From an uncultured Myxococcales bacterium (GTDB lineage Bacteria; Myxococcota_A; Polyangia; Fen-1088): a stretch of DNA of 64,000 bases. The position numbers were made by a program, and so were the translations under genes. Positions 6,743 to 64,000 of the stretch are shown piece after piece. Position 1 is the stretch's first letter; each line of letters begins with the position of its first letter. Where the stretch lies: NCBI GenBank assembly GCA_964443975.1, contig CAYUFS010000023.1, positions 1,953 to 65,952 of the forward strand. Direction: 5' to 3'. The notes under the pieces are model-generated. The model searched no databases and had not been told where the DNA came from. It saw only the letters and a program-made list of their open reading frames with translations.

Positions 6743-6746
6743 CGTC

Positions 6747-7028: not shown

Positions 7029-7086
7029 GTGGCGGGCAAATGGGTGGTCGCAAAATGATACTCCGGCCCCTGGGGGCCCGCCGCGC

Positions 7087-9029: not shown

Positions 9030-9107
9030 CCGGGGCTCGCCCGGCTCGCCAGCCCCCAGGATCTGGGGCAATCTCCTCCCAACGTGGCGACGAAGGGGCA
9101 GGTTTGA

Positions 9108-42639: not shown

Positions 42640-42949
42640 GCAGATCTCCGCGGCCTTCGGGCCGCTCTCTCAAGTCCCGCCCCCACGACCACCGAGATCG
42701 GACGCAACGTCGCCGAGGCCGCCATGCGCGCCTCAGAGATCGCCAGCAGCATTGCGGGCGTCGCCGCCGCGGCGGGCAGCACCCGAACGGGGGCGACGGA
42801 TACCGAGGAGGCGTCGGCAGGCCTGGCCAAGATGGCGGCCGAGATGCAAACGCTGATCGCGCGATTCAAATACTGACGCCGGTCCGCCCGATGACTTCCC
42901 GGGCGGGGGCGTAGGCCGCCCGGGCTCAATGGCGTAGTCAATTGTCGAC

Positions 42950-44545: not shown

Positions 44546-44662
44546 GCCGGGCGCGCCGTCGCGGCCAGGTCGCGTGCAACCGAGCTTCCAGAACCTCACC
44601 CGCCGAATCATGGACCTCGACTGGGCCACGCGTCAGGGGGCGGCCATGGTAAGGGTTGGGCC

Positions 44663-47032: not shown

Positions 47033-47674
47033 ATGAATCGCCGTTCAATTTCTGAACTCCCTCATCAAACCCTGAGGGAGCGCAACCGTTCGACCACGAT
47101 CGAGACGGTGCTGGCGGCGGCCGAGGAGGTTTTCGCCGATCAGGGCCTGCACGCGGCGCACATGGGAGAGATCGCGGCGCGGGCCGGGGTCTCGGTGGGG
47201 ACCCTGTACAATCACTTCAAGGATCGCGAGGATCTGCTGGCGGGCCTGCTCGAGGCGCGGCGCGCGGAGCTGCTCTCCCACCTGGACGAGGCCTTGAAGG
47301 ACGCGGCGGGGCGGCCTGCCATCGACCGCCTGCGGGTGGCGATCGAGACGATGCTGGCCCACAAGAGCCGGCACCGAAAGTTCATGCAGATCCTCCTGCA
47401 GGGCGAGATCGGGCGCTACGAGAACACGTTCCCGTCCGCGTGTCACATGCCGGGCGCGACCCTGCGCGAGATTTACGGGCGGGTCGAAAAGGTGGTGCGC
47501 CAGGGCGTCCGCGATGGAACGCTGCGCGCGGACATCGAGGCCACGGCGCCGATGTTCTTGATGGGGATGGTGCGGTCGCTCGCGATCCGGGATGCGCTGC
47601 GAAAGTCTCAGGGCGATCCCGTCGCGGACGCAGCGGAGCTGTTCGATTTCTTCTTGAAGGGAGCCGCAGCGTGA
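47033..47674 (+). CDS. TetR-family transcriptional regulator
   Basis: N-terminal helix-turn-helix (ETVLAAAEEVFADQGLHAAHMGEIAARAGVSVGTLYNHFKDREDL). Confidence 0.85.
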   Translation: MNRRSISELPHQTLRERNRSTTIETVLAAAEEVFADQGLHAAHMGEIAARAGVSVGTLYNHFKDREDLLAGLLEARRAELLSHLDEALKDAAGRPAIDRLRVAIETMLAHKSRHRKFMQILLQGEIGRYENTFPSACHMPGATLREIYGRVEKVVRQGVRDGTLRADIEATAPMFLMGMVRSLAIRDALRKSQGDPVADAAELFDFFLKGAAA

Positions 47675-49284
47675 GCGCCGCCGTCGTTCCGTTTTCGCCG
47701 CCCGCCTCCTCGGCGCGACCGCCCGTCAACAAGTGGCTCGTCACGCTCTCCGTCACGTTCGGCACCCTGATGGGCGCGCTCGACACCTCCATCGTCGCCG
47801 TCGCGACTCCGCACCTGCGCGGCGCCCTCGGCTCGACTGTCGAGGAGATGACCTGGGTCACGACCGGCTTCGTCATTGCCACCGTCATCGTCATGCCGCT
47901 CACCGCGTTCCTCGGGCGCACCTTCGGCCAGAAGCGCGTGTACATGTTTTCCCTGGCCCTATTCGTGGTCGGATCGGCGTTGTGCGGCCTCGCGCGCTCG
48001 TTGCCGATGATGGTGGCGTTCCGCGCCCTCCAGGGCCTCGGCGCCGGCGCGCTGCAACCGACCGAGCAAGCCATCTTGCGCCAGACGTTCCCGCCCGAGG
48101 AGCAGGGCATGGCCATGGCGCTGTTCGGGCTGGCTGTGGTCGTCGGTCCGGCGGCCGGACCGGCGCTCGGCGGCATCATCGTCGACAACTACAGCTGGCC
48201 GTGGATCTTCTACATCAACTTGCCGATCGGCATCCTGGCGCTGTTCATGGTCAGCCGCTTCGTGCACGAGCCGGAGGATATTCGGCGGGCAAACCTCGAG
48301 CGGGCACGACGCGAGCGCGGTGACCTCGACTGGATTGGCATCGTCCTCATGACCATCGGCCTCGCGTGTCTTCAGTACGTGCTCGAGGAAGGCAGCCGGA
48401 ACGATTGGTTTCAGTCGAAGGCGATCGCCACCTGCGCGTTCCTGGCGATCGCCATCCTGGCGGCGTTCGTCCTCCGCGAGCTGACGGCCCCCCATCCCGC
48501 CGTCGATCTATCCCTGTTTCGCGATCCGGTGTTTCTGACCGGCACGGTGATCGGCGGGATCATGTTCGCGATCCTGATGTCGATCACGTTCCTGTTGCCG
48601 GTCTTCATGCAAGAGCTGCTGGGATTCACAGCCACGCAATCGGGCGAGGCCCTGATGCCGCGGGCGCTGGCCATGATGGTCGGCATCCCGATCATCGGGC
48701 GACTCTACAACGTCGTGCAGCCGCGCATCCTCGTCTCCGTGGGTGTCTGTCTGGTCGCCTTCAGTACGTATTTGATGGCGCACTACACCCTCGACACGAG
48801 CGCGCGGACGGTGGCGGGCGCCATCATCATCCAGGGGTTCGGCTTCGCGGCGCTGTTCGTTCCCCTGACCACCGTCGCGCTCATGGGGATCCCACGCTAT
48901 CGATTGGCCGACGCGACCGGCCTCAACTCGCTGGTGCGGCAGATCGGCGGATCGCTTGGCCTGGCCGCGTTCGCCACGTTGTTGCCGCACTTCGTGGTCA
49001 CGGCGCGCACCGGCCTCGTGGCCCACGTCGTCGCGGGCCGCGCCGACGTCACCGCGCGACTGGGCCGGATCCAGCAGGGGCTGGTCGGTCGTGGCCTCGA
49101 CCCGGGGGACGCGCCAGGCGCGGCGCGCAGGATGCTGGCCGGCTTGATCGAGCGCCAAGCGAACGTGCTGGCCTTCGAGCGCATGTTCCTGCTCGCAGGC
49201 ATGGCGTTCCTCTTCGTCCTGCCGCTGGGGATGTTCCTCAAGGCCCCGCGCGGGGCGCGACGGTCGAAGCCCGACCTTCACTAG
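47671..49284 (+). CDS. MFS drug:H+ antiporter, DHA2 (EmrB/QacA) family
   Basis: A GTG start overlaps the TetR stop (GTGA). 14-TMS profile with motif A (ALQGLGAGAL) and DHA2-type blocks (WIFYINLPIG). Confidence 0.9.
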   Translation: MSAAVVPFSPPASSARPPVNKWLVTLSVTFGTLMGALDTSIVAVATPHLRGALGSTVEEMTWVTTGFVIATVIVMPLTAFLGRTFGQKRVYMFSLALFVVGSALCGLARSLPMMVAFRALQGLGAGALQPTEQAILRQTFPPEEQGMAMALFGLAVVVGPAAGPALGGIIVDNYSWPWIFYINLPIGILALFMVSRFVHEPEDIRRANLERARRERGDLDWIGIVLMTIGLACLQYVLEEGSRNDWFQSKAIATCAFLAIAILAAFVLRELTAPHPAVDLSLFRDPVFLTGTVIGGIMFAILMSITFLLPVFMQELLGFTATQSGEALMPRALAMMVGIPIIGRLYNVVQPRILVSVGVCLVAFSTYLMAHYTLDTSARTVAGAIIIQGFGFAALFVPLTTVALMGIPRYRLADATGLNSLVRQIGGSLGLAAFATLLPHFVVTARTGLVAHVVAGRADVTARLGRIQQGLVGRGLDPGDAPGAARRMLAGLIERQANVLAFERMFLLAGMAFLFVLPLGMFLKAPRGARRSKPDLH

Positions 49285-49335
49285 TCAATAGCGAGATCCT
49301 GGAAAGCCAATCTTTCATCAGAAAAGAAGGACGAT

Positions 49336-50652
49336 ATGGAGACCGCACGAAATCAGAAGTCAGCAACCGGGACCGCCAACCCAGTCGGGGTGGGTGGGCC
49401 GGTGCCCGGAGCGGTAGGTGACGCGGCGGCCGTGCCGGCACCGACCACCAGCGCCGCGCCAGCCCAAGCTCCGACCGCCGCGAAGCCGGCGCGGTCGCGC
49501 CGCCCGTTCGCCATCCTGGCCACGCTCGTTCTCGTGGGACTGGCCGGCGTGGGCGTTTACCGCCACCTCACCGCCGGCCAGGAGACCACCGACGACGCGC
49601 AGGTCGGGGCGGACACCGTCCCCGTCGGGACGCGCGTCGGCGGCATCCTGGCGCACGTCGCCGTCCGCGAGGATCAGCCGGTGAAGAAGGGCGACCTCCT
49701 GGCGCAGATCGACGACGCCGACTATGCCGCCCGCGTGCAGCAGGCGGAGGCCGATCTGGCGATCGCCCAGGCGCAGGCGGCCAGCGCCGAGGCGGAGTCA
49801 GAGATCGTCGAGGCGACTTCCAAGGGCGGCCTCGACGCCGCGCGCGCCGCCCTGCGTGGCTCGAGCGTGGGCGTGAGCAGCGCGTCGGCCCAGGTCGACG
49901 CCGCCCGCGCCGCGCTCGACCGCGCCCATGCCGACGCGCGCAAGGCGGAGATCGACCTGACCCGCGCCCGCGAGCTGCGCGCCGCGAACGCAATCCCGGC
50001 GGAGCGCCTGGACGCCGCGCAGATCGCCTTCGAATCGGCCCGCGCCGGGCTGGCGCAGGCAAAGGCCCAGGTGGCCCTGGCGGTCGAGGCGAAGAGCGCA
50101 GCCCAGAGCCACGTGGGCGAGGCGCGCGGCCACCTCTCGCAGAGCGCGCCGATCGCGCCCCAGATCGCCGCGGCTCACGCCGGGGTCGAGCTCGCCCACG
50201 CACGCGTCCGGAGCATGCAGGCCGCCGTGACGCTGGCGCGCCTGCAGCTCGGCTACACGCGCATCGTGGCGCCGGCCGATGGCGTGGCGTCGAAGTTGAT
50301 GGTCCACGACGGGCAGCTGGTCACCGTGGGCCAACCGGTGATCGATCTGGTCCCGAGCGGGACGTACCTGATCGCGAACTTCAAGGAAACGCAGATCGGG
50401 AAGATGCGCATCGGGCAGCGTGCCGAGATCGAGCTCGACGCGTTCCCCGGCCAGAAGTTCGAGGGTCAGGTGACGAGTCTGTCGGGTGGCACGGGCGCCA
50501 GCTTCTCGCTGTTGCCCGCCGACAATGCCACCGGGAACTTCGTGAAGGTGGTGCAGCGGGTTCCCGTCCGCATCGCCTGGACCTCGCCGCCGCGGGACGC
50601 CGCCATGCGCGCGGGCCTCTCCGCGGACGTCACCGTCTTCGTGGAGAAGTAG
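49336..50652 (+). CDS. HlyD/EmrA-family membrane fusion protein
   Basis: Single N-terminal TM helix, a coiled-coil (ADYAARVQQAEADLAIAQAQAASAEAE...) and a beta-barrel/lipoyl region (ANFKETQIGKMRIGQRAEIELDAFPG). Confidence 0.85.
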   Translation: METARNQKSATGTANPVGVGGPVPGAVGDAAAVPAPTTSAAPAQAPTAAKPARSRRPFAILATLVLVGLAGVGVYRHLTAGQETTDDAQVGADTVPVGTRVGGILAHVAVREDQPVKKGDLLAQIDDADYAARVQQAEADLAIAQAQAASAEAESEIVEATSKGGLDAARAALRGSSVGVSSASAQVDAARAALDRAHADARKAEIDLTRARELRAANAIPAERLDAAQIAFESARAGLAQAKAQVALAVEAKSAAQSHVGEARGHLSQSAPIAPQIAAAHAGVELAHARVRSMQAAVTLARLQLGYTRIVAPADGVASKLMVHDGQLVTVGQPVIDLVPSGTYLIANFKETQIGKMRIGQRAEIELDAFPGQKFEGQVTSLSGGTGASFSLLPADNATGNFVKVVQRVPVRIAWTSPPRDAAMRAGLSADVTVFVEK

Positions 50653-50654
50653 CC

Positions 50655-51977
50655 ATGCCCCTGATCTCGTGGGCGACCCTCGCCGCGATCCTGGTGGCGG
50701 CCGGTGCCGCGCCGTCCCTCGCGTGGGCCGCGTCGCCGTCGCCGGCACAGACCTTGACCATCGAGGAGGCGGTGGCGCGGGCGCTGCGGGACAATCCCCG
50801 CCTCGGCGCCGCCCGCCGTCGGCTCGAGGGTCGAACGGAAGCGACGACGGCGGCCGGGCGACGAATGTTGCCCTCCGTCCACCTGAGCGAGGAGTTGCAG
50901 TATTACGACCGGCCGTTCAGCGTCACCTTCGGCCCCAGCGCCCTGACGGTCCGCGACCAGACGACGAACGCGTTCGCGGCGTCGGCGAACCAGCCGGTGC
51001 TGGGGCTGTTGCGCCTCGACAGCGAGCGGGAGGCGCTGGCGGAGGGCCGGGTGGCCGCCGAAGCGCAGCTGGCGGCAGCCGAGGCCGACCTGCGCGAGGC
51101 CATCAAGATAGAGTTCCTGCGCACGTTCGAGGCGCAGGCGATGAAGCACATCGCCGAGACGTCCGCCGCCGAGCTGTCCGACCAGGTCACGGTGGCGCGC
51201 GCGCGGCTGGCGACCGGCGTCATCACCGAGGCCGACCTGCTGCGTCTGCAGGTCGCGGTGGCCAACGCGCGCCAGCAGGCGCTGCAGGCGGAGGGCCAGG
51301 CGCGCGCGTCGCGGGCGACGCTGTTCGCGGCGATGGGCGTAGAGCCCGCGGACGGCAACGCTGTCACGCTGATCGAACCGCAGGCCTTCCTCGATGCGGC
51401 GCGCGTCGCGGCGACTGCGTCCGCCGAGGCGCTGTTGTCCGGCGCGCACGCTCGCCGCCCCGAGGTCGTTCAGCAGACGCACCTCGTGTCGTCGCTGGAC
51501 CTCGACGCGCGGGCGCGCGGCTATGCGATGCTGCCCGAGATCGATCTCGAGGCGGCGTATGTGCGCATCGATGGCCAGCAGTTCGCGCCGAAGAACTCGG
51601 CCTATGTCGGGGTCAAGGCGGAGTGGGGAATCTGGGAGTGGGGGACGACCGAGCATCGGCGGCGGGCGGCGCTGGCCGAGGCGGCGGCGGCGCGCCAGGA
51701 CGCGGAGGGCGTCGATCGCCAGATCGAGGCGGAGGTGGTGGGCGCCGTCTCGGAGGGCGACGCCGCTCGCGGGGCCGTTCAGGCGGCCGAGGAGGCCATC
51801 GCGAGCGCGGAGGAGGCCTTCCGCGTGACCGAGGCGCAAACGAAGGCCGGCACGGCCACGACGACGGATCTGCTGGAGGCGCAGTCCGCGCTGACGCAGG
51901 CGCGCCTCAACCTGACCCGCGCGGAATACGAGCTCGCGCTCGCGCAGGTGCGGCTCACGCGCGCGTCGGGCGGGTGA
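50655..51977 (+). CDS. Outer-membrane efflux protein (TolC/OMF family)
   Basis: Signal peptide, then two repeats of coiled-coil/beta segments (LTIEEAVARALRDNPRL ... TATTTDLLEAQSALTQARLNLTRAEYELALAQVRL). Confidence 0.8.
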   Translation: MPLISWATLAAILVAAGAAPSLAWAASPSPAQTLTIEEAVARALRDNPRLGAARRRLEGRTEATTAAGRRMLPSVHLSEELQYYDRPFSVTFGPSALTVRDQTTNAFAASANQPVLGLLRLDSEREALAEGRVAAEAQLAAAEADLREAIKIEFLRTFEAQAMKHIAETSAAELSDQVTVARARLATGVITEADLLRLQVAVANARQQALQAEGQARASRATLFAAMGVEPADGNAVTLIEPQAFLDAARVAATASAEALLSGAHARRPEVVQQTHLVSSLDLDARARGYAMLPEIDLEAAYVRIDGQQFAPKNSAYVGVKAEWGIWEWGTTEHRRRAALAEAAAARQDAEGVDRQIEAEVVGAVSEGDAARGAVQAAEEAIASAEEAFRVTEAQTKAGTATTTDLLEAQSALTQARLNLTRAEYELALAQVRLTRASGG

Positions 51978-52423: not shown

Positions 52424-53407
52424 TCAGCGCGCGGGAGAAATGGTGACGTGGACGAGGGTCTGATTGAGCAACTGGAAGGCAATCTCGCCGAACGTCATGG
52501 GACCAAGGAGTGACCCCGTTCGGTGGTTTTCGAGCTCGCCGTAGAGGTAATTGAGCACGCAATTGCAGGTGAACACGGGCGCCCCGACGTCCGAGGGGAT
52601 CGAGGCGAGGAAACGTTGCGGATAGCTCTCGATGGGGCGGGCGAATCGATACGACACGCCCTCGAACACGGGGGCGTAGAGCTTGACGGTCGCGCTTTGC
52701 GCGTCGAGCGCCTGAATGCTGACGTTGATCAGCGCGCCGCAAAAATTGGCGACCAGGGGCAGGCGGGTGTCGAGGCGCTTGCCCACTACGTAGTCGTGGA
52801 AGTTCCGACGCTCACCGTTGATCGTGCAGTCCTTCACCCCGAAGCCCGAGGCAGGGAAGGTGATCTCATCTCCGTCCGCGGCGGGCTCGAAGATGTTGAC
52901 GATACCGATCTGCGCGCGGTGGGATTCGGGCAAGTCGACGTGAAGCGCCACCCCGCGATCCGACAGCACCTCGCCGGTCATGCCGTTGAAGACCTTCGGG
53001 GTTTTCTTGCCGAGATCATCGAGGTGAATCCCCGAGATCCACCCGGCCACCGTCTTCAGGAACAGGTCCTTGTAGAGCGGCGCCTCGAGCGCGTATTGCT
53101 GGTGGATGGGCGTGAAGGCAGGGAGGATCAGGATGGTGTAGCCGTTCTCCGGGGAGTCCTCGCCAATCTTGGCGATGGTGCTCACGTCGTAGACCGTGGC
53201 GGTCCGCGGGTGCGCGAACGGCGGGGCCACCTCCACGAAGATGCCCGTGCGAGATGTCTTGCCGCCCTCCTCGGTCATGAAGTAAGGGATGGTGCCTCCG
53301 ATCCAACTGCCGCGAGGCACGGCGCGCAGCACATCCTCCTCCGCGGCGAGGACGAGGGTCTTGCCGGCCGCCAAAAGTTCCTTCACTTGGTCGATGGTCG
53401 CGAACAT
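52424..53407 (-). CDS. Possible FIST-domain sensor protein
   Basis: The C-terminal block LGPMTFGEIAFQLLNQTLVHV resembles the FIST_C consensus (GEI...NqT) as I recall it. About 327 aa. Confidence 0.35.
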   Translation of the reverse strand: MFATIDQVKELLAAGKTLVLAAEEDVLRAVPRGSWIGGTIPYFMTEEGGKTSRTGIFVEVAPPFAHPRTATVYDVSTIAKIGEDSPENGYTILILPAFTPIHQQYALEAPLYKDLFLKTVAGWISGIHLDDLGKKTPKVFNGMTGEVLSDRGVALHVDLPESHRAQIGIVNIFEPAADGDEITFPASGFGVKDCTINGERRNFHDYVVGKRLDTRLPLVANFCGALINVSIQALDAQSATVKLYAPVFEGVSYRFARPIESYPQRFLASIPSDVGAPVFTCNCVLNYLYGELENHRTGSLLGPMTFGEIAFQLLNQTLVHVTISPAR

Positions 53408-54043: not shown

Positions 54044-55225
54044 ATGGGAAGCGGCTTCCGGATCGACGCGTACCTTCAGGACTGTCGCCGGTTGACGCTT
54101 GAGGAAATCAAGAGACACGTCCCGCGCGACACCCGAAACACCGCGGGCCTGTACGACCTCATCCTCGACTATCCGATGCGTCCCGCCAAGGCGCTGCGTC
54201 CCGCGCTCTGCATTGGTGTCTGCCTGGGTCTAGGAGGCCACCTCGATGCGGCGCTGCCCTCGGCGGCCGCATTCGAATTGTTTCACAACGCGTTCCTGGT
54301 CCACGACGACGTCGAGGACGCGTCGCTGCTGCGTCGCCACGGGCCGACGCTGCACTCCACTCATGGCGTCCCGATCGCGGTCAACGTAGGTGACGCGATG
54401 TTGGCGGTCGCCTTCGCTCCGTTGCTCGACAACGTTCGCGTCGTCGGGCTGGGCCCGGCGCTGAAGATCCTGCAGTCGTTCGCACGGATGGCACGTGAAT
54501 CCGCTGAGGGACAGATGCTGGAGCTCGACTGGATCCGAAACCGTCGCTGGGATTTGGAGGACCGTGACTACCTGCGCATGGTCCACAAGAAGACAGGGTG
54601 GTATTCGTTCATAGCGCCGATACAGGTGGGCGCGATCGCCGCCGGCGCGGATCGCCGGACCATCGATACGCTGGGGCGGTTCGCCGTGACCCTGGGCATC
54701 GCGTTCCAGATTCAAGACGACTTGCTGAGCTTGGAGGGAGGGGAGGGCACGATCGGGAAGGACGCACTGGGCGACCTCTGGGAGGGGAAGTACACGCTCG
54801 CGCTGCTGCACGCGCTGCGCTCGTTGCCCGAGCCCGAGCGCCGCGAGGCGTTCGCGATTCTGGCGCTGTCGCGCGCGACGCCGCCGGATGACGGAGCGCC
54901 TCCCGACGATTCGACGGACCGGGCCCGGCTGTTCGCAAGGCTCGTGAATGGGGCCGTCCCGCTTTCCGTGGGCGAGCGGGCCATCCTCGAGAAGGCGCTC
55001 CTCGGCGCGCCCGCCGACAACCGAACCGCCGCCGACGTCCGCAGGCTCCACGAGCTCGTCACGGGTCGCGGAGGAGAGAGTCTCCTGCACGCGCGGCGAA
55101 TCGCCCGCCGGCTGGCGGGTCGATCCATGGCGGTGCTGGACCGCGGCCTGAAGGAGTTGCCCGATTCCATACACAAACTGTTTCTGAAAGAACTGGTCGA
55201 GTTTGTGATACACAGATCCCGCTGA
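54044..55225 (+). CDS. Polyprenyl (trans-isoprenyl) diphosphate synthase, FPP/GGPP synthase family
   Basis: First Asp-rich motif FLVHDDVED and second FQIQDDLLS. The start is placed at Met 54044 (alternative 53987). Confidence 0.85.
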   Translation: MGSGFRIDAYLQDCRRLTLEEIKRHVPRDTRNTAGLYDLILDYPMRPAKALRPALCIGVCLGLGGHLDAALPSAAAFELFHNAFLVHDDVEDASLLRRHGPTLHSTHGVPIAVNVGDAMLAVAFAPLLDNVRVVGLGPALKILQSFARMARESAEGQMLELDWIRNRRWDLEDRDYLRMVHKKTGWYSFIAPIQVGAIAAGADRRTIDTLGRFAVTLGIAFQIQDDLLSLEGGEGTIGKDALGDLWEGKYTLALLHALRSLPEPERREAFAILALSRATPPDDGAPPDDSTDRARLFARLVNGAVPLSVGERAILEKALLGAPADNRTAADVRRLHELVTGRGGESLLHARRIARRLAGRSMAVLDRGLKELPDSIHKLFLKELVEFVIHRSR

Positions 55226-55243
55226 GGCGGGGGAGGGAGACGA

Positions 55244-55819
55244 ATGACGAGGTCTGGCTCGGGGGGCGAATCGGCGGGTGAAGAGGATGCGCTGCTCGCT
55301 GCGCTGCTAAGAATCCACCGAACGAAGCGGCAGCGGCAGAGAGAGCGCGAGGGAGCGCCGAACGCTTCGTATGAGCGAATCCTCGGTCATTTCGCCCAGA
55401 GGGGAGACAGACTGCGCGGCGAGAAGCTGGTCACGGCCGAGCTGATCGAGCGACTGTTCGAGGCCGGACGCGTGATTCCGGCGCGTCGGGTTCAACAGGA
55501 GCTCAACATCGTCGGCGGCGCTGGCTCCCGGGCGGCGGGGCGATTGAGGCTCGCTAACCGTTCGGCCACACGAGCGCGCTTCGAGTTCGTCGTTGGTGAT
55601 CCCCTTGAAGGCGGCAGCCCTCCACGGGTCGTCTTCGAGCCCCACGGGGGCGAGCTCGATCCAGGCGAGACGCGGCTGGTCAGGGTCGAGGCGGACCTCG
55701 GAGGTTGGCGCGAGGGGGACGCGATGACGATCCCGGTGGAATGTCGATGGGACAAGGGCCGTGATCGTCTTTGGCTCGATGTCTCCGCCCTGCCCCTCGC
55801 TCGTGAGGGCGATCGATGA
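55244..55819 (+). CDS. Hypothetical protein
   Basis: 191-aa ORF 19 nt after the prenyl synthase. Its stop overlaps the next start (ATGA). Confidence 0.45.
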   Translation: MTRSGSGGESAGEEDALLAALLRIHRTKRQRQREREGAPNASYERILGHFAQRGDRLRGEKLVTAELIERLFEAGRVIPARRVQQELNIVGGAGSRAAGRLRLANRSATRARFEFVVGDPLEGGSPPRVVFEPHGGELDPGETRLVRVEADLGGWREGDAMTIPVECRWDKGRDRLWLDVSALPLAREGDR

Positions 55820-56199
55820 CCGCTCCGGACGACGATCTGCTGCCCGAGGTCGTGATTGGCGATCAGGAGGACGCCGTCCTCGATCTGCTGCGTGAAATGC
55901 AGAGCGCCGCGCTCGTGCACTCGGAGGCGACTCGGGCCCTGTACCGGAGCCTCATACAGGAAGGCAGGCTATTCGCGCAGACCGCCATCGGCAGGCGATG
56001 GAAGGACCGGATCCTTCGGTCGACGCTGCTCGAGCGGGCCGTGTTGATTTGGCAGAACGCCACGCTGTGGATAACGGAGGAGCCAGCAGACACCGCGACG
56101 CCCTCGGCGCTGATCGACGCGGTCGCGGCGGCCGCCACGTCGCCGCGCCGAGACGAGTTGCTGGATCGCCTCTTCAAAGACCTGGACGACGGAGCGTGA
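55816..56199 (+). CDS. Hypothetical protein
   Basis: 127-aa ORF, translationally coupled on both sides. Confidence 0.45.
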   Translation: MTAPDDDLLPEVVIGDQEDAVLDLLREMQSAALVHSEATRALYRSLIQEGRLFAQTAIGRRWKDRILRSTLLERAVLIWQNATLWITEEPADTATPSALIDAVAAAATSPRRDELLDRLFKDLDDGA

Positions 56200-56200
56200 C

Positions 56201-56500
56201 ATGCTGGAAGAACAGCTCGAGCAATTCTCCGGCCGTGATGGATTCGCTCACATGCTGCTCGGGATCGTGGGATTCACCGAGCGCTTGGCGGCGGTCACCG
56301 CCATTCCCCGTCCGGACGGGGGCGTCTGTGCTGACGGACCTTTGGCTCACCTCCTGATGGGGGTGATCTCCGCGGGGCTGACCCTGCGGGCTGCCCTGCT
56401 GTGCGATCAGGCCCGCGCGGCGGCGGAATCGAAGCCCGAGGGGGGCGGCGCTGCCAACGAGCCGGGGCCCATCGATGCGTCCAAGGGGATGCTGCGATGA
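56201..56500 (+). CDS. Hypothetical protein
   Basis: 99-aa ORF with hydrophobic stretches (HMLLGIVGFTERLAAVTAI, LLMGVISAGLTL). Its stop overlaps the next start. Confidence 0.4.
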   Translation: MLEEQLEQFSGRDGFAHMLLGIVGFTERLAAVTAIPRPDGGVCADGPLAHLLMGVISAGLTLRAALLCDQARAAAESKPEGGGAANEPGPIDASKGMLR

Positions 56501-57561
56501 CCGTCACGGGTCGTCTGGACCCCGCGATCGCACGTTCCGTGACGCGCGTGGACGCCTGGCGCCAATCAGCGAAGAGCGCCGCCAGCGACAGTGGCTCGTA
56601 CAAGGAGTGGATGCACTTCTGCGTCTGCCTCGCGGATCGCACCCACCCAACGGGACACCTGCTGGTGAACCTCAACGTCACTGACAGCCTCCTGGCGGGA
56701 GCTCGAACGCGCAATCCCCGGCTGATTGCGCTCGGCTACCTCGGCGATTGGACGGGAACGCTGGAGACCTTCGGGGACGATGCGGTTTCGGGCGGCGCGG
56801 GCGGATTGGATCTGTTCCTCGGGCGAAATGGCGTGAGCTGGAGGGACGGCGCGTATGTCCTCGTCCTCGACGCCGCAGAGATCGCCGCCGACCTCCGGCT
56901 CCGGCCCCTCGTGCCGCCCACGGTACCGAGTCAGGTGTCGTTCGGCGGCCGGCACTCGATAGCGTGGGTGGTCGTCCCGCGCCTCGAGGCCACGGGCTGG
57001 GTGCGGATCGGCGGCCGCACGTTACGTCTCGAGCGGGCGTCCGCCTATCACGATCACAACTGGGGACACTTCCGATGGGGCGGCGACCTCGCCTGGGAGT
57101 GGGGCTTCGTCAACCCGGCCGATGCGCGCTGCCCGTTCAGCGTCGTCTTCGCGCGGGTGTCCGATCGCGGTCGTCATTGCACGTTCAGCCAAAGCGTGCT
57201 GCTGTGGCGCCGGGACAGCCTCATCCGCACCTTCCAGGACCGAGAGGTGCGGATGACCATGGAGGGTGCCCACCCGGGCCCCCGTCCGTTCACCCTGCCC
57301 CGGGTGGCGTCGCTCCTGCTGCCCGGCACCAGCTCCGGCGTGCCGTCGCGGGTCCTCGTCGAAGCGCGGGGCAGGGACGAGCAAGTGACGATAGACCTCG
57401 TCACGAGCTCGAAGGCTCGCATCGGAATCCCGAGCGACACGGACCCCTTTCGGCTTGTCGTGCTCAACGAGACCTGCGGCGAAGCCCGCGTGAAGGGCTC
57501 CACCCGCGCGGCCGACCTCGACTTCGCCGGCCCCGCTGTCATGGAGTTCGTACGTGGCTGA
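56497..57561 (+). CDS. Hypothetical 354-aa protein; weak resemblance to a carotenoid-hydratase (CrtC)/AttH-like beta-sandwich
   Basis: Start at the internal Met (MTVTGRLDPAIAR). Contains AYHDHNWGHFRWGGDLAWEWGF. The family call is unverified. Confidence 0.45.
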   Translation: MTVTGRLDPAIARSVTRVDAWRQSAKSAASDSGSYKEWMHFCVCLADRTHPTGHLLVNLNVTDSLLAGARTRNPRLIALGYLGDWTGTLETFGDDAVSGGAGGLDLFLGRNGVSWRDGAYVLVLDAAEIAADLRLRPLVPPTVPSQVSFGGRHSIAWVVVPRLEATGWVRIGGRTLRLERASAYHDHNWGHFRWGGDLAWEWGFVNPADARCPFSVVFARVSDRGRHCTFSQSVLLWRRDSLIRTFQDREVRMTMEGAHPGPRPFTLPRVASLLLPGTSSGVPSRVLVEARGRDEQVTIDLVTSSKARIGIPSDTDPFRLVVLNETCGEARVKGSTRAADLDFAGPAVMEFVRG

Positions 57562-58000
57562 GACGCGCGCGGAGGCGCTGCCGCGGTTTCTCGAAGCCGC
57601 CATGTCGAGTCTCTCACATGAATCGCCCGCGCATCTGAGCGCCATGCAGCAGACGCTGCGCGACCTGCGCGCGGTTGTCCGCGTCGATGGCGCACCTCCC
57701 TTCAGCGTCTGCGTCGGCGCTGGACACGCATGGGTCGACCGGCGTCTCGCTCAAGGCGACGTTGAAGTTACGATGGAGGAATCGGCACTTACTGACCTCC
57801 TCCTAGGTCGCCTCACCATGGAGGAAGGCGTCCTCAACGACCGGGTCTTCGTTCGGGGCTCGCTGGATACCCTCCTGAAATTCTTGGAGGGCTGGGCTGA
57901 ATGGCTTCATGGCGCCTTGCGCTGCCCTTCGATGCCGGCTGTCCACCGGCAACTCCTGGCCATGGAAGTTGGCCGCCCAGTGAACCACCGTCCGGAATAG
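57554..58000 (+). CDS. SCP2 sterol-carrier-like domain protein
   Basis: A GTG start overlaps the upstream stop. TMEESALTDLLLGRLTMEEGVLNDRVFVRGSLDTLLKFLEGW resembles the SCP2 lipid-binding fold pattern. Confidence 0.5.
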   Translation: MAETRAEALPRFLEAAMSSLSHESPAHLSAMQQTLRDLRAVVRVDGAPPFSVCVGAGHAWVDRRLAQGDVEVTMEESALTDLLLGRLTMEEGVLNDRVFVRGSLDTLLKFLEGWAEWLHGALRCPSMPAVHRQLLAMEVGRPVNHRPE

Positions 58001-58017
58001 AGAACAGGGAGGCCATC

Positions 58018-61000
58018 ATGTTCAATCAGGGAAAAAAGTCGCAGAGGCTGAGCTTTGGACCGCGGGCGAGGGACTTTCTTCCTCCGGAACCGTCTGACCC
58101 GACAAGCGTGGCTGCGGATTCAGCCGCCGGGCCAGCTCGCCCGGGGGCCAAGCAGAACGCAGGCGCGAGCGCCGTTGTTACCGCCCAAGCTGCCGCACGA
58201 CAGGAATCGAAGCTGCTCGAGAAGCTGCGGGCGGACGGGCGCAGTCGCCGGCCGGAGCCGAGGCTGCCCGGCAAACACGCGCTGAACCCGCCGATCGTGA
58301 CTATCTTTGGCGCGGGAGTGGCGGGGCTGACGGCGGCTCATGAGTTGGTCGATCGTGGATTCCTCGTCCAGGTAGTGGAAGCCAGCGAAGATTTGTCTTG
58401 CCCGGGTCGCCCGATTGTCGGCGGCCTGGCCGCCAATCAGCCGGCCAGGGTCAGAGCCAACATCGAGGACCTTCACCGAGACATCATGATCGCTGCCCTG
58501 ACACCCCAAGTTGACGGCGAGCCGCAGGCGCTCAGCTCCACGAGGCGAGTCGCGGCGTGGCTCTTGAATTTGTTCGCGTTCAATCGTAGCCGATGGATTC
58601 AGACCGAGGAGCCCCAGAGAATCAATGGGTGCATCTTTTCCTCTCCAACCGATCCCGCTGCAAAGATATACAAGGAGCATCTTCTGCGCGACCTGGCAAA
58701 TGCCCGCCACCACTACAGAAACCGCTGGTTGTGGGACCTCATTGTCCGACCAGCAATGTTGGGCGCTATCAAGCCAAGAACGCCGGACGTCGACGTCAAC
58801 GCCGACTGCAAGAAGCTCTACGACAAGCTCATGGGGGCTGATGTCGCGGTGACGTCCATCTCAAAGGAGCTCCTTACCCATTTCGAGGGAACGGACGTCA
58901 CGACCGAGTTGCCGAGCTCCACGCAGATCCACTCCTGCCCGTCCCTGGTCACCCTGGGCATGGAACGGGAGTTCCTTTCGTTTCGCTTGATCCCTTTCGC
59001 CCGCCAAGGCTTCGAAGACGCCCCTAGGCTGGCGCGCGCCCTCTACCAGGAGTGGCTCCACGTGTTCGAGAGTCACGATATCTTCAAGTACTCTTGCGTC
59101 TCTTGCCCTCCGCCGGAAATGGAACAGGCTCTCAATGAAGGTACCAAGCACACGAGGTCGACACGAGAAAACCTAGTTCCGCTTGATGGTGACGGCGTTC
59201 CAATCGCGGTCGAAGTCGCAGAGGCACCGCCGGAATTCCCATTTCAAGCGTGGCTTCAGCTCGAGATTGTCGAGCAACGTCTGCCCGGAGAGCACGGGTA
59301 TCGCTTTTTCCCGTCATTTTATCGGCATCTCGACGACACCATGGCCCGCATCCCCCTTTATCAAAATGGCCAGACCACTGGACGAACGGTTCTCGACAAT
59401 CTCAAGCCCACGGTCTTCCAGGGCATCGGGCTATCCGACGAGGATCGTAAGACGATCGTGTCGCTCAGGCAGAGTAGCCGCCGACCCAATCTGGAAGCGC
59501 AGGATCCGAACCAAAGGGACGACAGATATCCAAACTACGACGACCCGATGCTTTCGCCGTGCCGTGACGAAGCGAGCGGCGCGGTCGTAGAACTGCACCG
59601 CGAGAAGCCTCGCAGTATCGAGGCGTTCCGGGACTGCACGGATCGATTCGTCAAACGTCTGGGCGGGACGAGGCGAGATGCGGTGATCCTACTGTCCAAG
59701 CTGATTCGTTTCATGACATCGAGTCCAGAGCGGCGGAGGGCCAAGTACGAGGACCTGACCTGGGCAGAGTTCCTGGACGTGTCGAAGTTTTCAAAACCGA
59801 TGCAAAAGCAGATTCAATCGGCTGCTCAGGCGCTGTTGGCATTTTCGGCTTCAGAGGCGGACGCCAGAACCTACGGAAACATAGCGGTCCAAATGCTGCT
59901 CGACGAGTTGCGGGATGGCACACGGGTCGATCGAACCCTCAACGGACCAACGAGCGATGCGTGGCTGGAGCCGTGGCGAGAGCACCTTGAGCGCCAAGGC
60001 GTCAGATTCTTTCTCGGAAGGCTCAGCGCGCTGGAGCTCAAGAACGATGAGATCATTCCAAGAATCGACTTTAGTTCAGCGCAGGATCGGGTGTCCCAGG
60101 ACGCCCACGAGATTTTGACTGCGTCATTGGCCAACGAAGGGTTGCGGCCGGATTTTTATGTGTTGGCTCTGAATATCGAGCAGAGCCAGCGGTTGATTGA
60201 GCAGATTGTGATCGATCCGGGAGCCGACGCGGCCGCGCCTGTCACCGCTGGAGTGGTCGTCGAAAAGCATAAAGATCTGGCGCCGGATTTCGCGACCTTC
60301 CTCGACTTCGGGAAGGAGGTGCAAGATCGAAAGGCGATGAAGACCATGACGGGCGTGCAGTATTTTTTTGATGCCAAGACCGACGTTGGAAGAGGGCACA
60401 TGTACTTCCCATTCTCGAGTTGGGGTTTGTCATCCATTTCCCAGTCTCAATTTTGGTCCCGGCGCGGGAGCTTCTCCGATGGATACTTCGGGCTCCTTTC
60501 AGTGGACGTATGCACCACCGGGATAGGACCTGATGGCCCTCCCGAGCCAGGATCGTTCGCCGATGCTCTCAGACCCGGGGAGCAGAAGGATGGGTACGAC
60601 GTACAGAGGCGTGTTCTCGAAACAGGCCAGCAGACCCTAAAGCAAATTGCGGACAGGATCGGGGGAGGACGGCAACTCGGAGATCCCAGATGTCTTCACA
60701 TCGATCGGAATCTGTCTCGGCCGGCGAAGGAGAAGACAGAGTTCCTCGCGTCCATGGCGGGGATGAAGAAGCCCCGCGCTGGTCTGAGACCGGTTGGCCC
60801 CGATGGGCATGTGTGTGTGGGTGTCAAAGAGATCGAATACGATCTGAACTTCAAAAGATGGGTGTTATGCGGGACGTTCATGGCGACCCGCACCCGCATG
60901 ACGACTATGGAGTCAGCCAATGAATCGGGCCGACATGCCGTCGCCGCAATTCTGAGACGCCTGTCGATGGACGACGCGTCTGACAGCGTCAAGGCAGAAT

Positions 61001-61443
61001 ACCTCGACCACGGCTACCAGATCGAGAACCTGTCAAACAGGACCTACAATTGGGCGTCGAAGTTTAGAACGTACGAGGCGCCGCCCACTTGGAATCCTGA
61101 AGACGAGGAGTTGGAGGATCTGGACTTCTTCCGCCGGGTGGACCGGCGCTTGATGAACCTGAACCTTCCTCACCTCATGGATATCGTTGACTTTGATGAC
61201 AAGGTCGAGCATGCGGTTCAGGCGATCGAGCTGTACGGGAGAGAGAAGCCGCTGTCGAACCTCTTTGGGGCGTCAATGGCGGGGCTCGACGCCGGATTGG
61301 TCAAGGAGTTGGGGGATGGGTATGCGAAGCTCGAAACGGCTCGGTGGGACGAGGCGACGCGAGCGGCGGCCGGGCCACCATTCGGCGATATGGTGCAGAT
61401 AAACGAACGGTGGAAGAAGGTTCTTGGGCTCTTCAGGCTTTAG
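58018..61443 (+). CDS. Giant (1141 aa) flavin amine-oxidase-fold protein with about 900 aa of inserted sequence
   Basis: AGGGAGG Shine-Dalgarno before the ATG at 58018. Beta-alpha-beta FAD fold PIVTIFGAGVAGLTAAHELVDRGFLVQVVEAS about 110 aa in. C-terminal amine-oxidase motif VLCGTFMATRTRMTTMESANESGRHAVAAIL. The local GC content is markedly lower. Confidence 0.7.
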   Translation: MFNQGKKSQRLSFGPRARDFLPPEPSDPTSVAADSAAGPARPGAKQNAGASAVVTAQAAARQESKLLEKLRADGRSRRPEPRLPGKHALNPPIVTIFGAGVAGLTAAHELVDRGFLVQVVEASEDLSCPGRPIVGGLAANQPARVRANIEDLHRDIMIAALTPQVDGEPQALSSTRRVAAWLLNLFAFNRSRWIQTEEPQRINGCIFSSPTDPAAKIYKEHLLRDLANARHHYRNRWLWDLIVRPAMLGAIKPRTPDVDVNADCKKLYDKLMGADVAVTSISKELLTHFEGTDVTTELPSSTQIHSCPSLVTLGMEREFLSFRLIPFARQGFEDAPRLARALYQEWLHVFESHDIFKYSCVSCPPPEMEQALNEGTKHTRSTRENLVPLDGDGVPIAVEVAEAPPEFPFQAWLQLEIVEQRLPGEHGYRFFPSFYRHLDDTMARIPLYQNGQTTGRTVLDNLKPTVFQGIGLSDEDRKTIVSLRQSSRRPNLEAQDPNQRDDRYPNYDDPMLSPCRDEASGAVVELHREKPRSIEAFRDCTDRFVKRLGGTRRDAVILLSKLIRFMTSSPERRRAKYEDLTWAEFLDVSKFSKPMQKQIQSAAQALLAFSASEADARTYGNIAVQMLLDELRDGTRVDRTLNGPTSDAWLEPWREHLERQGVRFFLGRLSALELKNDEIIPRIDFSSAQDRVSQDAHEILTASLANEGLRPDFYVLALNIEQSQRLIEQIVIDPGADAAAPVTAGVVVEKHKDLAPDFATFLDFGKEVQDRKAMKTMTGVQYFFDAKTDVGRGHMYFPFSSWGLSSISQSQFWSRRGSFSDGYFGLLSVDVCTTGIGPDGPPEPGSFADALRPGEQKDGYDVQRRVLETGQQTLKQIADRIGGGRQLGDPRCLHIDRNLSRPAKEKTEFLASMAGMKKPRAGLRPVGPDGHVCVGVKEIEYDLNFKRWVLCGTFMATRTRMTTMESANESGRHAVAAILRRLSMDDASDSVKAEYLDHGYQIENLSNRTYNWASKFRTYEAPPTWNPEDEELEDLDFFRRVDRRLMNLNLPHLMDIVDFDDKVEHAVQAIELYGREKPLSNLFGASMAGLDAGLVKELGDGYAKLETARWDEATRAAAGPPFGDMVQINERWKKVLGLFRL

Positions 61444-61455: not shown

Positions 61456-64000
61456 CTATGGCGCGCGCGGAGACACCCTGAGCTGGTCAGAAATGAGCCG
61501 TTCGACGCGCGCGAGATCGTGGCGCGCACCAATTCTACGAAAGAGCTCTGCCGCCTCTCCGAGGTAGCGCGCGCGGTCAGGAGGGCTGATCGCGTGTTCT
61601 CCCAGGGCGGCCAGCGCCATCCCTTCATCATGCGCCATCGAGAGACTGCGGGCGCGCTTCAGACTCGCTTGAAAATGACGCCTGGCGCGCTTCACGTTTC
61701 CGTCCACGTTGGCGGCCTCGATGCCCTGCCAGAGGGAAGCCCGTGGCGAAGCGATCACCATCACCCGGCTCACCGCCCTTATTCGCTTCACGGCATGTCG
61801 TACGAGCTGTTCTAGGTCGTGCTTGTCTTGGCGGTTCGTCGACAGGGTCCACAAACGGAAGTGGACCTCGGCAACGGCGCCGTAAGCGAAGATGTTGTAG
61901 AAGACCGGAGCCGTCCCCTTGCTATCCCATGCCGAGCAGCGTCGCGCGGCGTCTTGGGCCGCCTGAGCGTCGCCGGACCTCAAATAAGCGAGAGCCAGAG
62001 CGCCAAGCGCATAGATCCACTCGGCACGGCCGAGGGCGTTGCGGCAAAGTCGTTCTCCTTCTCTCGCGTCCGTGACGGCAGCGGTCGCTTCGCCGCCCAT
62101 CAAATGTAGCTCCGCCCGCTTGACCACGGCCCAGCATTTGCTCTGGGGATCTGCCCGTTCCGTCGTTCCGAGGAGCCGTTCATTGACATCGTGGGCCTCG
62201 CGGAATCGTCCTGCAAGGAATAGGGCGGTGCCGAGTTGTGCAGTGGATTCCTCCCACCTCCGACTAAAGCCCATCCGCAATGACATGAGTCCGACCTGCT
62301 GGAGGGTTGATTGAGTCTGGTCCCAGCGACCCGCCTGGAGATGGACGAGCGCCACGTTCATTAGGACCCACGTCTCCGCGAGCTCGTCTCCGCTCTCCTT
62401 GGCCACCTGCGTGGCCCGTTGGCAGTAGGATTGGGCAATACCATCGAGGTTGGCGAGCGAACACATCGCCGCGAACGTGGCATACCCGAGTGCGCGCTCT
62501 GCTGAGGCGCCGCCCGCCTGTTCTGCGAGATCCATGTTTGTCAGGCCGGCGAGGGTCACCGCCAGCATGTTGCCGGTGACAAAGTAGTGCACGACCAACA
62601 GCCGTTCGTAGGCACGGGCCGCTTCCAGCAGCAATTCGCGAGCAACACCTTCCGGTTGCAGAAGGGGCAGTGATGACGGCAGCGAACGCCGAATGAGCTC
62701 TCGGGCGAGTGAAAGGACGCAGCGAGCGGCCATTCCCGCCCGGGAGCGAGGCCAGCGTTTCCCCGCGATCCCAGCGGCCTCGACCAGACTCGACGAAGCC
62801 AGGTCCATGTTCCCCAGAGCCAGGGCATTGAGACCGAGGAGTCGTTCTCTTCGGGCGCGGGCGAGCACCGAGGCCTTCGCAGAAACCAACATCTCCAGCG
62901 ACTTGGCTCTCTCCAGCAAGCCGATCGCCTCGGCATTCGCGTGCATCGCATGGGCGGCCTCACCGGCCTTGTCCAGGTACTCCAGGGCTTTTGCGAAGTC
63001 CTTTGCTTTCTCGAAGTGATGGGCCAGGGTGGCGTAGACGCTGTCCAAGGTCCCTGCCTCCGCGTGCCGGCGCTCTAGCAGGACCGCCGCTGCCGCATGG
63101 AGCCTCGCCTGTCGCTCGGCGGATAGCCCCTCGTAGGCGATCTCCCGGAGCTTGTCGTGTACGAACCTCACCGATCCCGGCAGTGAGGGCTCGAGGATCT
63201 GCCGCACCAGGAGGTTTCGCAGCGTCTGCCCGAACGCTGTCTCATCGGCGACTCCGACGGCGAGGGCCAGCGCGGACAACACCTCGATCTGCACTTCGCG
63301 GCCCAGGACCGCCGCGACCTCGGTCAGGCGTCGCGAGGTATCGAGGAGGCCGTCGAGTCGGCGCGTCACCAGCGCCTGCAAGGTGTGCGGCAGGCCGAGG
63401 CCATCGAGCGCCATTCCCCCGCCGGACTGTTGCCATCTCCCGCGGTCGTCCCGGAAAAGCAGGCCAGCGTCGACCGCGGCCCTCAGGTATTCAGCGACAA
63501 AGAACGGGTTTCCGGACGACTCCTCGGTCAGGAAAGCCGCCAGCGTGTCCGGAACTTGCCTCTGCCCGAGCATGTCCGCCGACATGGCGCCGATCGTCGC
63601 GGCGTCGAGCCTGTCCAGGCGAAAGTGGGTTGAATGCGAAAGCCCGGCCAGTCGGTCGAGGTCGGGGGTCGACTCCTCGGCGCGATAGGTCGCGACGACG
63701 AGGACCGGGTTCTCTCCGTAGTAGCGTTCCGTCAACGAGGACAGGAAGGCCAGGGTGAGATCGTCCGCCCACTGCAGGTCATCCAGCACCAACAGGGTCG
63801 GTCTGTCCGAGGCGAAGCTCGCCAGGGTTTCGGCCATTGCATCGATCAGCCGCCGTCGGGAGGCTTCGCCGGGTATCTCGGCCGGCTCTGGATAGGATTC
63901 GACCCCCGGCAGGTTTCGTAGCGTGGGCTCGCATGCGGCCAAGACCTTGGCGCGCTCACCGAGCATCCGTCGCGTGAGCGTCTCTCCCCCCGCGACGCAG
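61456..64000 (-). CDS. STAND-type P-loop NTPase with C-terminal TPR-like repeats (partial; its 5' end lies beyond the window)
   Basis: The frame is open to the window edge upstream of the first Met. LLVLDDLQWADD (Walker B / hhhhDD), a GNPFFV helical domain, then about 500 aa of helical repeats. It converges on the flavoprotein gene. Confidence 0.7.
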   Translation of the reverse strand, partial: CVAGGETLTRRMLGERAKVLAACEPTLRNLPGVESYPEPAEIPGEASRRRLIDAMAETLASFASDRPTLLVLDDLQWADDLTLAFLSSLTERYYGENPVLVVATYRAEESTPDLDRLAGLSHSTHFRLDRLDAATIGAMSADMLGQRQVPDTLAAFLTEESSGNPFFVAEYLRAAVDAGLLFRDDRGRWQQSGGGMALDGLGLPHTLQALVTRRLDGLLDTSRRLTEVAAVLGREVQIEVLSALALAVGVADETAFGQTLRNLLVRQILEPSLPGSVRFVHDKLREIAYEGLSAERQARLHAAAAVLLERRHAEAGTLDSVYATLAHHFEKAKDFAKALEYLDKAGEAAHAMHANAEAIGLLERAKSLEMLVSAKASVLARARRERLLGLNALALGNMDLASSSLVEAAGIAGKRWPRSRAGMAARCVLSLARELIRRSLPSSLPLLQPEGVARELLLEAARAYERLLVVHYFVTGNMLAVTLAGLTNMDLAEQAGGASAERALGYATFAAMCSLANLDGIAQSYCQRATQVAKESGDELAETWVLMNVALVHLQAGRWDQTQSTLQQVGLMSLRMGFSRRWEESTAQLGTALFLAGRFREAHDVNERLLGTTERADPQSKCWAVVKRAELHLMGGEATAAVTDAREGERLCRNALGRAEWIYALGALALAYLRSGDAQAAQDAARRCSAWDSKGTAPVFYNIFAYGAVAEVHFRLWTLSTNRQDKHDLEQLVRHAVKRIRAVSRVMVIASPRASLWQGIEAANVDGNVKRARRHFQASLKRARSLSMAHDEGMALAALGEHAISPPDRARYLGEAAELFRRIGARHDLARVERLISDQLRVSPRAP

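Follow-up and report, generated by a model that had tools for sequence, protein, structure and literature searches.

The stretch analysed here, 64,000 nucleotides (nt) of an uncultured Myxococcales genome, is referred to as the window. Towards its 3′ end it carries seven consecutive plus-strand open reading frames (ORFs) at 54044-61443, designated genes A to G from 5′ to 3′, and these are followed by a convergent regulator gene. Their products include a prenyl diphosphate synthase, a predicted hydratase with a probable lipid-binding partner, and a very large flavoprotein. With confidence a little above even, we read the A-G block as one operon for a self-contained isoprenoid-modifying pathway of a conserved, uncharacterised type. 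The genes are as follows (aa, amino acids; GGPP, geranylgeranyl diphosphate; FAD, flavin adenine dinucleotide):

A, 54044-55225, plus strand, 393 aa: trans-polyprenyl diphosphate synthase, probably short-chain (GGPP type)
B, 55244-55819, plus strand, 191 aa: basic helical N-terminal part and probable Ig-like C-terminal half
C, 55816-56199, plus strand, 127 aa: conserved helical protein, core member
D, 56201-56500, plus strand, 99 aa: core protein with two amphipathic helices, a linker and a conserved tail
E, 56497-57561, plus strand, 354 aa: AttH/CrtC-superfamily double β-barrel, predicted prenyl C=C hydratase (or related protonation/elimination enzyme)
F, 57554-58000, plus strand, 148 aa, GTG start: probable SCP2-fold lipid-binding protein, partner of E
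G, 58018-61443, plus strand, 1141 aa: FAD flavoprotein with a phytoene-desaturase/amine-oxidase fold
STAND regulator, 61456-64000, minus strand: convergent Ser/Thr kinase-AAA_16-TPR protein, cut by the window end

An earlier note, made from the letters of this DNA, had described seven tightly coupled plus-strand genes. Their coordinates and junctions were confirmed, the gaps from A/B to F/G being +18, -4, +1, -4 (ATGA), -8 and +17 nt. The identical operon was present on JGI, ENA and Logan contigs, and independent gene callers yielded the same seven products. A simple scan of the A-G block found no promoter-like or terminator-like site above the expectation from shuffled sequence. The GC content is depressed in the 3′ half, as had been observed: G has 58.9% GC and a third-position GC (GC3) of 0.70, compared with 64-69% and 0.71-0.84 in A-F. 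The window as a whole has 68.6% GC, and the efflux genes just upstream have a GC3 of about 0.91. Anti-phage defence, an idea prompted by the STAND neighbour, was rejected because PADLOC gave no relevant match on the operon; its sole match was that of 31 Rossmann residues of G to a desaturase model.

Conservation of the gene set

Related loci were searched for in one genome per species using an alignment of G as the query, and 79 distinct loci were retrieved through G alone. When the seven proteins were compared with these 79 loci by tblastn, A, C, E, usually F, and G were found in the same order and on the same strand in 36 non-self loci. The hosts in Myxococcota include Archangium, Labilithrix, Polyangiaceae and Nannocystaceae ST9, plus Pyxidicoccus, which was found separately. 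Those in Actinomycetota include Mycolicibacterium aurum, M. chlorophenolicum, M. tusciae, several Mycobacterium species and Pseudonocardiaceae, and other hosts are Binatia and unclassified proteobacterial metagenome-assembled genomes (MAGs). Pyxidicoccus, Nannocystaceae ST9, Mycolicibacterium and Mycobacterium are cultured, and in Nannocystaceae ST9 the whole operon is present twice, at separate chromosomal sites (L021 and L080). A search for co-occurring homologous operons had been proposed in the earlier note; it showed that the six genes A, C, D, E, F and G keep their order in Myxococcota, Binatia and Actinomycetota, so that they are co-conserved. Since the gene order recurs in 36 other loci of several phyla, the arrangement is beyond chance. 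By these alignments, the same six genes have been passed on as a set across phyla.

Breaks were seen in the genes of two loci from long-read MAGs. In L004 (contig_33651), the synthase gene is broken into two parts and an interruption falls in the D/E region (5975-7196 and 8155-8849). In L005, an in-frame stop lies within E (8421-9506). These breaks are probably assembly frameshifts and not pseudogenes.

B, C and D matched no Pfam, NCBIfam or PADLOC family. The earlier note had listed them together as three small unknowns; the absence of a family stood for all three, and the grouping was refined, as C and D belong to the conserved core and B lies outside it. C was found by tblastn in the same position in 32 loci, mycobacteria included. 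Its alignment has the motif hP-AAxA...LvaEGR-fa-T-EG...vWe-SLN-L...P, and it had no match in the PDB. ORFs of 85-116 aa that lie directly upstream of E in both Myxococcota-type and actinobacterial loci align with D, and independent gene callers place 93-aa genes in this slot. D ends in a Pro/Ala/Gly-rich linker followed by a conserved hydrophobic-Leu-Arg-COOH tail (window 56470-56500; D ends in 16 loci), and across loci its stop codon usually overlaps the start of E as ATGA. The terminal Leu codon is CTG, TTG, CTC, CTT or CTA in different loci. Because this codon varies synonymously, D is real and its tail is kept by selection at the protein level.

Clear homologues of B were confined to L004 and L005, which are the closest orthologous loci. 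The B slot in other Myxococcota-type loci holds very divergent ORFs of 190-280 aa, and Pyxidicoccus and the actinobacteria have no such ORF. From this distribution, B is lineage-specific and outside the conserved core. The best PDB matches of the B profile were designed Ig domains (E 0.003-0.02), and one member matched Ig_VWA7 at E 1e-4; the C-terminal half of B is therefore a probable Ig-like β-sandwich.

These data bear on the simplest alternative, namely that unrelated genes stand side by side by chance and that B, C and D are spurious ORFs. High-GC DNA does yield many long spurious ORFs, and B is poorly conserved. However, C and D keep both their place and their sequence from phylum to phylum and vary synonymously, B-D were called by independent gene callers and have a GC3 of 0.72-0.83 in the coding frame, and the gene order is kept in the 36 loci. 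Such conservation excludes chance, and the probability left to this alternative is next to negligible.

Predicted enzymes and lipid carrier

A matched PF00348 in Pfam with E 2.3e-55 (188 bits against a gathering cutoff of 27 bits), and its nearest solved homologue is the GGPP synthase of Thermus thermophilus (1wmw, E 4.6e-51). Both Asp-rich motifs are intact: the first (FARM) is DDVED at residue 88 and the second (SARM) is FQIQDDLLS at residue 225. HNAFL[IV]HDD[IV]ED is kept in all operon copies of A. By these motifs and this kinship, A is an intact trans-prenyl diphosphate synthase that is closest to C20 (GGPP) synthases. The residues before FARM are Phe at -4 and Ala at -5, and together with the kinship to 1wmw they suggest a short-chain (GGPP type) product over a long-chain polyprenyl one. 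The earlier assignment of a polyprenyl diphosphate synthase was thus upheld as to the enzyme and refined as to the chain, which looks short. A also has an insertion of about 60 aa ahead of its C-terminal helix. Its top NCBIfam match was the family 2 encapsulin cargo polyprenyl transferase (NF041169), but as the score of 172 bits is far under the 450-bit cutoff, A is not a member of that family.

E contains the motif AYHDHNWG at residues 183-190. It had no direct Pfam CrtC match, and a sequence search of the PDB gave no useful match. An AlphaFold2 (AF2) model built from a 50-sequence alignment reached a predicted local distance difference test (pLDDT) of 93.7 and has the AttH/CrtC double β-barrel fold. 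The E family was also aligned with P0218, a protein bearing PF07143 (CrtC), at an hhalign probability of 98.5% (E 2.7e-15), and YHDHNWG is common to both. The suggestion in the earlier note that E might be CrtC/AttH-like, made from the HDHNWG motif, is borne out by these results. A previous report showed that Tyr266, Asp268 and Trp241 are essential in R. gelatinosus CrtC (RgCrtC) (PMC4717167). Y184, D186 and W157 of E are invariant in the 50 sequences, and a motif comparison found them in the same order and spacing as these three residues of RgCrtC. As modelled, the fold of E is that of the AttH/CrtC hydratases, and the catalytic Tyr-x-Asp is retained. We predict that E is a prenyl C=C hydratase, or a related protonation/elimination enzyme. 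The family is small and diverse, with 313 representative clusters at E≤1e-30 among 1.84 billion proteins.

The fold of E would also accommodate a non-canonical terpene synthase or lyase. Such an enzyme would ionise or eliminate the diphosphate of the A product, or cyclise it by protonation, to form a diterpene hydrocarbon or alcohol, and G would oxidise this to a terpenoid that serves as a volatile or signal. As this role would have it, a prenyl synthase is present in the operon and a canonical terpene synthase is not, and a 25-phosphosteroid lyase and pericyclases also have the AttH fold. Many Trp residues of E are invariant, its basic residues K36, R75 and R162 are invariant or nearly so, and known encapsulin-linked terpenoid systems make volatiles (PMC8346489, PMC11550324). 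However, E is without a Mg-binding DDxxD or NSE motif and has no demonstrated diphosphate site, and the residues common to E and CrtC point to alkene protonation and hydration. The case for a synthase or lyase is one of fold analogy alone, and we consider it unlikely.

F gave matches below the Pfam cutoffs to SCP2 (PF02036; E 0.04, 14.7 bits against a gathering score of 21.3) and to Alkyl_sulf_C (E 0.037). Nearly all top PDB matches of the F profile were SCP2-fold proteins, namely alkylsulfatase C-terminal domains, SCP2-like 2 and UbiJ (E 0.07-0.8). In a comparison with human SCP2, the hhalign probability was 4% and the correct C-terminal motif was aligned. F is joined to the C-terminus of E in at least four metagenome proteins (P0191, P0389, P0414 and P0436; 491-508 aa). 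These fusions comprise three distinct representatives at ≤50% identity, with hhalign probabilities of 99.0-99.6%. Because such fusions exist, carrier-like F can be tied to AttH-fold E by a Rosetta-stone link. F is probably an SCP2-fold lipid-binding protein and the partner of E. The SCP2-like carrier of the earlier note is consistent with these sub-threshold matches and is the weakest of its domain guesses.

G carries the dinucleotide-binding motif (GxGxxG) IFGAGVAGLTAAHEL at residues 96-110, and the motif residues are invariant in the family. In Pfam, it matched PF13450 with 23.0 bits (cutoff 21.9) and PF01593 with 20.3 bits (cutoff 19.8). The top Foldseek match was phytoene desaturase (PDS), and a CrtI-type desaturase was also matched. 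G has the PDS/CrtI/amine-oxidase two-domain flavoprotein fold; with its FAD Rossmann motif, this bears out the amine-oxidase-fold flavoprotein proposed earlier. The architecture further includes a disordered N-terminus of about 90 aa, a helical insertion of about 270 aa (residues ~150-420) and a helical C-terminal extension. A sequence search of the PDB matched G at the Rossmann motif only, and the insertion had no match. The top NCBIfam match of G was HpnE, which covered 33 N-terminal residues (33 bits against a 283-bit cutoff).

An Fe-S cluster in G, as suggested by its JGI name 'NAD-binding domain and iron-sulfur cluster', was rejected because no Cys is invariant and C832 is only nearly so. 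Many shorter paralogues of the G family in Sorangium and other Myxococcota (P0047, P0048, P0053, P0072 and others) carry an OmpA-like peptidoglycan-binding fusion (PF00691), which is odd for an FAD enzyme. As the OmpA domain is absent from operon-linked G proteins, a periplasmic location of operon G is not indicated. The operon of Pyxidicoccus trucidator (L087:10506-15926) has two tandem G paralogues of 895 and 902 aa.

The CrtC-like E and PDS-like G raise the possibility of accessory carotenoid tailoring, in which C40 carotenoids from a carotenoid cluster at another genomic site would be the substrates of E (CrtC-like) and G (CrtD-like), and A would do no more than boost the GGPP supply. The catalytic motif of CrtC is kept in E, one E homologue bears the NCBI name carotenoid 1,2-hydratase, and the Foldseek matches of G are to PDS, its best, and to a CrtI-type desaturase. 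In addition, many hosts are pigmented (myxobacteria, Mycolicibacterium aurum). However, E is no more than 37% (26-37%) identical to proteins outside its operon-linked family and, as noted above, has no direct Pfam CrtC match. At twice the length of CrtD/CrtI, G resembles their NCBIfam models at the dinucleotide-binding motif and nowhere else. Moreover, the five annotated loci have no crtB or crtI neighbours, and the operon brings along a prenyl synthase, a carrier-like protein and a further three conserved proteins for which the canonical pathways have no need. Carotenoid tailoring is thus possible, though rather doubtful. As the earlier note had stated for the operon, phytoene or squalene synthase and cyclase are missing: none of the seven proteins is a phytoene synthase, and the Pfam-annotated flanks of five loci contain no phytoene synthase, squalene synthase (PF00494/SQS_PSY) or terpene cyclase.

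Regulator and encapsulin-like shells in related loci

The part of the regulator that lies in the window comprises its C-terminal 836 residues with AAA_16 and TPR. The full protein on identical contigs has 1292 aa, with an N-terminal Ser/Thr kinase domain (Pkinase) and AAA_16. A convergent regulator gene is also found in L004 and L005 (52-58% identity) and in Pyxidicoccus trucidator, and the actinobacterial neighbour is an upstream AAA_16-GAF-adenylate cyclase of about 1440-1485 aa. AAA_16 proteins adjoin the operon in 29 of the 37 loci, with a kinase or a cyclase as the output domain. Because of this recurrence, the STAND ATPase is counted as a part of the system, to which, judged by its neighbourhood, a STAND-type signalling ATPase with a swappable output domain belongs. 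The earlier note had missed this conserved regulator next door as well as the encapsulin link in relatives.

A gene of about 260 aa lies between the regulator and A in every actinobacterial copy. Two further loci, referred to as sister loci, have a related arrangement:

Actinobacterial shell-like gene: L033:5906-6691, with equivalents in L029, L031, L034, L037, L038, L043, L049, L059, L060, L070, L084 and L086
Sister loci, L082:7352-12961 (Granulosicoccaceae) and L042:4199-12752 (Chthonomonadaceae): adenylate cyclase-AAA_16 regulator, (Crp), DUF3237 protein, encapsulin, G-like flavoprotein and A-like synthase

No Pfam or NCBIfam model matched the ~260-aa actinobacterial protein. The sole PDB match of its profile was the encapsulin of Thermotoga maritima, which was aligned over the full length and in register (E 0.36). 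When all ORFs of the loci were searched with this profile, two proteins were matched, one each in L082 and L042, and both are bona fide Linocin_M18 proteins (PF04454; E 5e-21 and 4e-18, respectively). Alignment of the ~260-aa family with this pair gave an hhalign probability of 95.1% (E 3.4e-8, 246 columns), and a reverse hidden Markov model (HMM) search also linked both. The family has about 590 detectable members, nearly all of which are named hypothetical; one is called 'Phage major capsid protein' in UniRef. These results suggest, at an hhalign probability of 95%, that the actinobacterial protein is a very divergent family-1-like encapsulin shell missed by current models. It is homologous to family 1 over the full length but invisible to Pfam and NCBIfam.

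The sister loci resemble family 1 (Linocin_M18) encapsulins with tagged cargo, as the PF04454 shell stands directly upstream of a tailed G-like flavoprotein. Their A-like synthase carries the same HNAFLVHDDIED and FQIQDDLLNL motifs and belongs to the same subfamily as A. The G-like flavoproteins (650-670 aa) have a P/A/S-rich linker and then GRVELIPH or GRVRILPQ at the end, and the G proteins of actinobacterial operons have disordered tails with [QKR]SL[FY]. By analogy, both types of tail have the layout of encapsulin cargo-loading peptides. In PMC8346489, polyprenyl transferases are given only as family 2B cargo, and flavoprotein and isoprenoid-enzyme cargo is not among the types listed for family 1. 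The sister systems look like an undescribed encapsulin cargo type. The DUF3237 proteins of the sister loci were rejected as E homologues (hhalign 0.2%).

HMMs from the actinobacterial and Linocin_M18 proteins detected no shell homologue anywhere in the window (64 kb) or up to 10 kb away from any Myxococcota-type locus. B was rejected as a replacement shell, since its hhalign probability against the actinobacterial shell was 0.1% and it looks Ig-like. The window G ends in a conserved helix and has no disordered tagged tail. Because there is no shell match, B is unrelated to the shell and the G tail is helical, we read the window locus as the same set of enzymes in a version that has no shell but has additional domains in G and the lineage-specific B.

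Alternatively, the window organism could encapsulate the pathway using a shell gene located elsewhere, with the D tail or the C-terminal helix of G as the loading signal. Encapsulins are common in Myxococcota, and the actinobacterial versions of the operon do carry a shell gene. The linker and terminal motif of D also have the layout typical of family 1 cargo and are kept both with and without a shell. However, in addition to the negative shell search, the window G is without the disordered [QKR]SL[FY]-type tail of shell-linked G proteins, and the D tail shows no agreement with the known LxxGSL[KR] loading peptides. Since D is retained in shell-less operons, its tail more likely binds another operon protein, and we hold encapsulation of the window pathway to be improbable.

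On the other side of the operon, a DUF6976 gene (PF22396, E 2e-130; window 52424-53407, minus strand) is divergent from A. It was rejected as a part of the system because it is not beside the operon in any other locus; no literature mention of the family was found. Upstream of it lies a tripartite efflux operon (window 47056-51977, plus strand) that encodes an MFS transporter, an HlyD-type membrane-fusion protein and an OEP outer-membrane factor. A GSCFA-family protein (plus strand) and a membrane protein like lipase-maturation factor (LMF1) (minus strand) are encoded at window 41287-44632; LMF1 is better known in eukaryotes.

Proposed pathway and significance

The acyclic carotenoid steps of CrtE/CrtC/CrtD(CrtI), in spirilloxanthin and myxobacterial synthesis, use the same three enzyme superfamilies as A, E and G. 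Unlike them, the operon is without phytoene synthase, cyclase and methyltransferase, and E and G stand on deep branches of their own. The operon also adds the 1141-aa G with its large insertions, an SCP2-like partner, three small proteins and a STAND regulator. The family 2B encapsulin terpenoid systems, with 2-methylisoborneol (2-MIB)/geosmin synthase and polyprenyl transferase cargo (PMC8346489, PMC11550324), likewise tie isoprenoid enzymes to an HK97-fold shell in Actinomycetota and have a link to cyclic-nucleotide signalling. However, the shell in the operon relatives is family-1-like without the cNMP-binding domain, the operon has no terpene cyclase, and the window has no shell. The UbiJ-UbiK Ubi metabolon likewise combines an SCP2-like protein with flavoenzymes whose substrate is a prenylated lipid. 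The parallel is one of function only, as the similarity of F to UbiJ is sub-threshold, and the operon is without aromatic prenyltransferase, methyltransferase and UbiK-like genes. The HpnC/HpnD/HpnE squalene route also uses an amine-oxidase-fold flavoprotein on a hydroxylated isoprenoid, but the operon has no HpnC/D (SQS_PSY).

Because phytoene synthase is absent, the CrtE/CrtC/CrtD logic is placed on a non-carotenoid chain. By analogy with these enzymes, the best reading, at slightly better than an even chance, is that the operon encodes a CrtE/CrtC/CrtD-like module making a hydroxylated or desaturated C20-type isoprenoid. A would supply a C20-range prenyl diphosphate, and E would protonate a terminal isoprene double bond and hydrate it, in the manner of CrtC and kievitone hydratase. 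F would hold the hydrophobic intermediate and pass it on. G would then desaturate or oxidise the E product, as CrtD/CrtI/PDS do beside the hydroxyl made by CrtC. C, D and, in this lineage, B would serve in assembly or as a scaffold, with no catalysis of their own. In Actinomycetota these enzymes are probably enclosed by a divergent encapsulin, and the window version is probably free or a complex scaffolded by B, C and D. The adjacent STAND kinase may control expression or activity.

Several points weigh against this interpretation. The chain length of the A product cannot be read from sequence, and G is about equally similar to amine oxidases and carotenoid desaturases, so that its substrate could be of either class. 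The presumed equivalent of CrtC His239 does not appear to be conserved in E, where the residue two before W157 varies (I, S, D, H), the comparison with RgCrtC being one of motif order and spacing. Since Diels-Alderases and a phosphate lyase are also found among AttH-fold enzymes, chemistries other than hydration are possible. F falls below every curated SCP2 threshold, three of the seven proteins (B, C and D) are without an assignable role, and co-transcription is deduced from gene spacing alone.

A broader reading takes the window operon as the shell-less myxobacterial form of an unrecognised cross-phylum system, with C and D as adaptors that organise the dedicated prenyl synthase, the CrtC-like enzyme with its SCP2 partner and the giant flavoprotein, and with a new encapsulin family of about 590 detected members, invisible to Pfam, around them in Actinomycetota. 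Its product would be an oxidised C20 isoprenoid of a new class, perhaps a signal or volatile, and a STAND kinase or cyclase would exert the control. We put it forward tentatively, at clearly less than an even chance.

The superfamilies and the general kind, an isoprenoid gene cluster, are known. The gene set, the small proteins, the STAND partner and the encapsulin-bearing relatives are undescribed in the searchable literature, in which we found no paper on the cluster. The earlier proposal of an undescribed pathway therefore stands, on bioinformatic grounds. A lead to mycobacterial C35 heptaprenylcycline was dropped, as one review mentions the compound and no gene link was found.

If the pathway reading is true, an isoprenoid pathway of soil myxobacteria, Binatia and many environmental mycobacteria has been overlooked, and what it makes could be a new lipid, a pigment precursor or a signal. 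The system is open to testing in cultured carriers, namely Pyxidicoccus trucidator, Nannocystaceae ST9, Sorangium and Mycolicibacterium species. A role beyond carotenoids would also follow for CrtC-type hydratases and PDS-type flavoproteins, and this would be of interest for biocatalytic terpene hydration. The actinobacterial relatives would reveal an encapsulin-like shell family missed by Pfam and NCBIfam together with a multi-enzyme isoprenoid cargo, and the shell-less window version would be a natural comparison for what encapsulation adds. Should the broader cross-phylum reading also hold, it would mean a new encapsulin family and cargo type, and a terpenoid route without a canonical terpene synthase.

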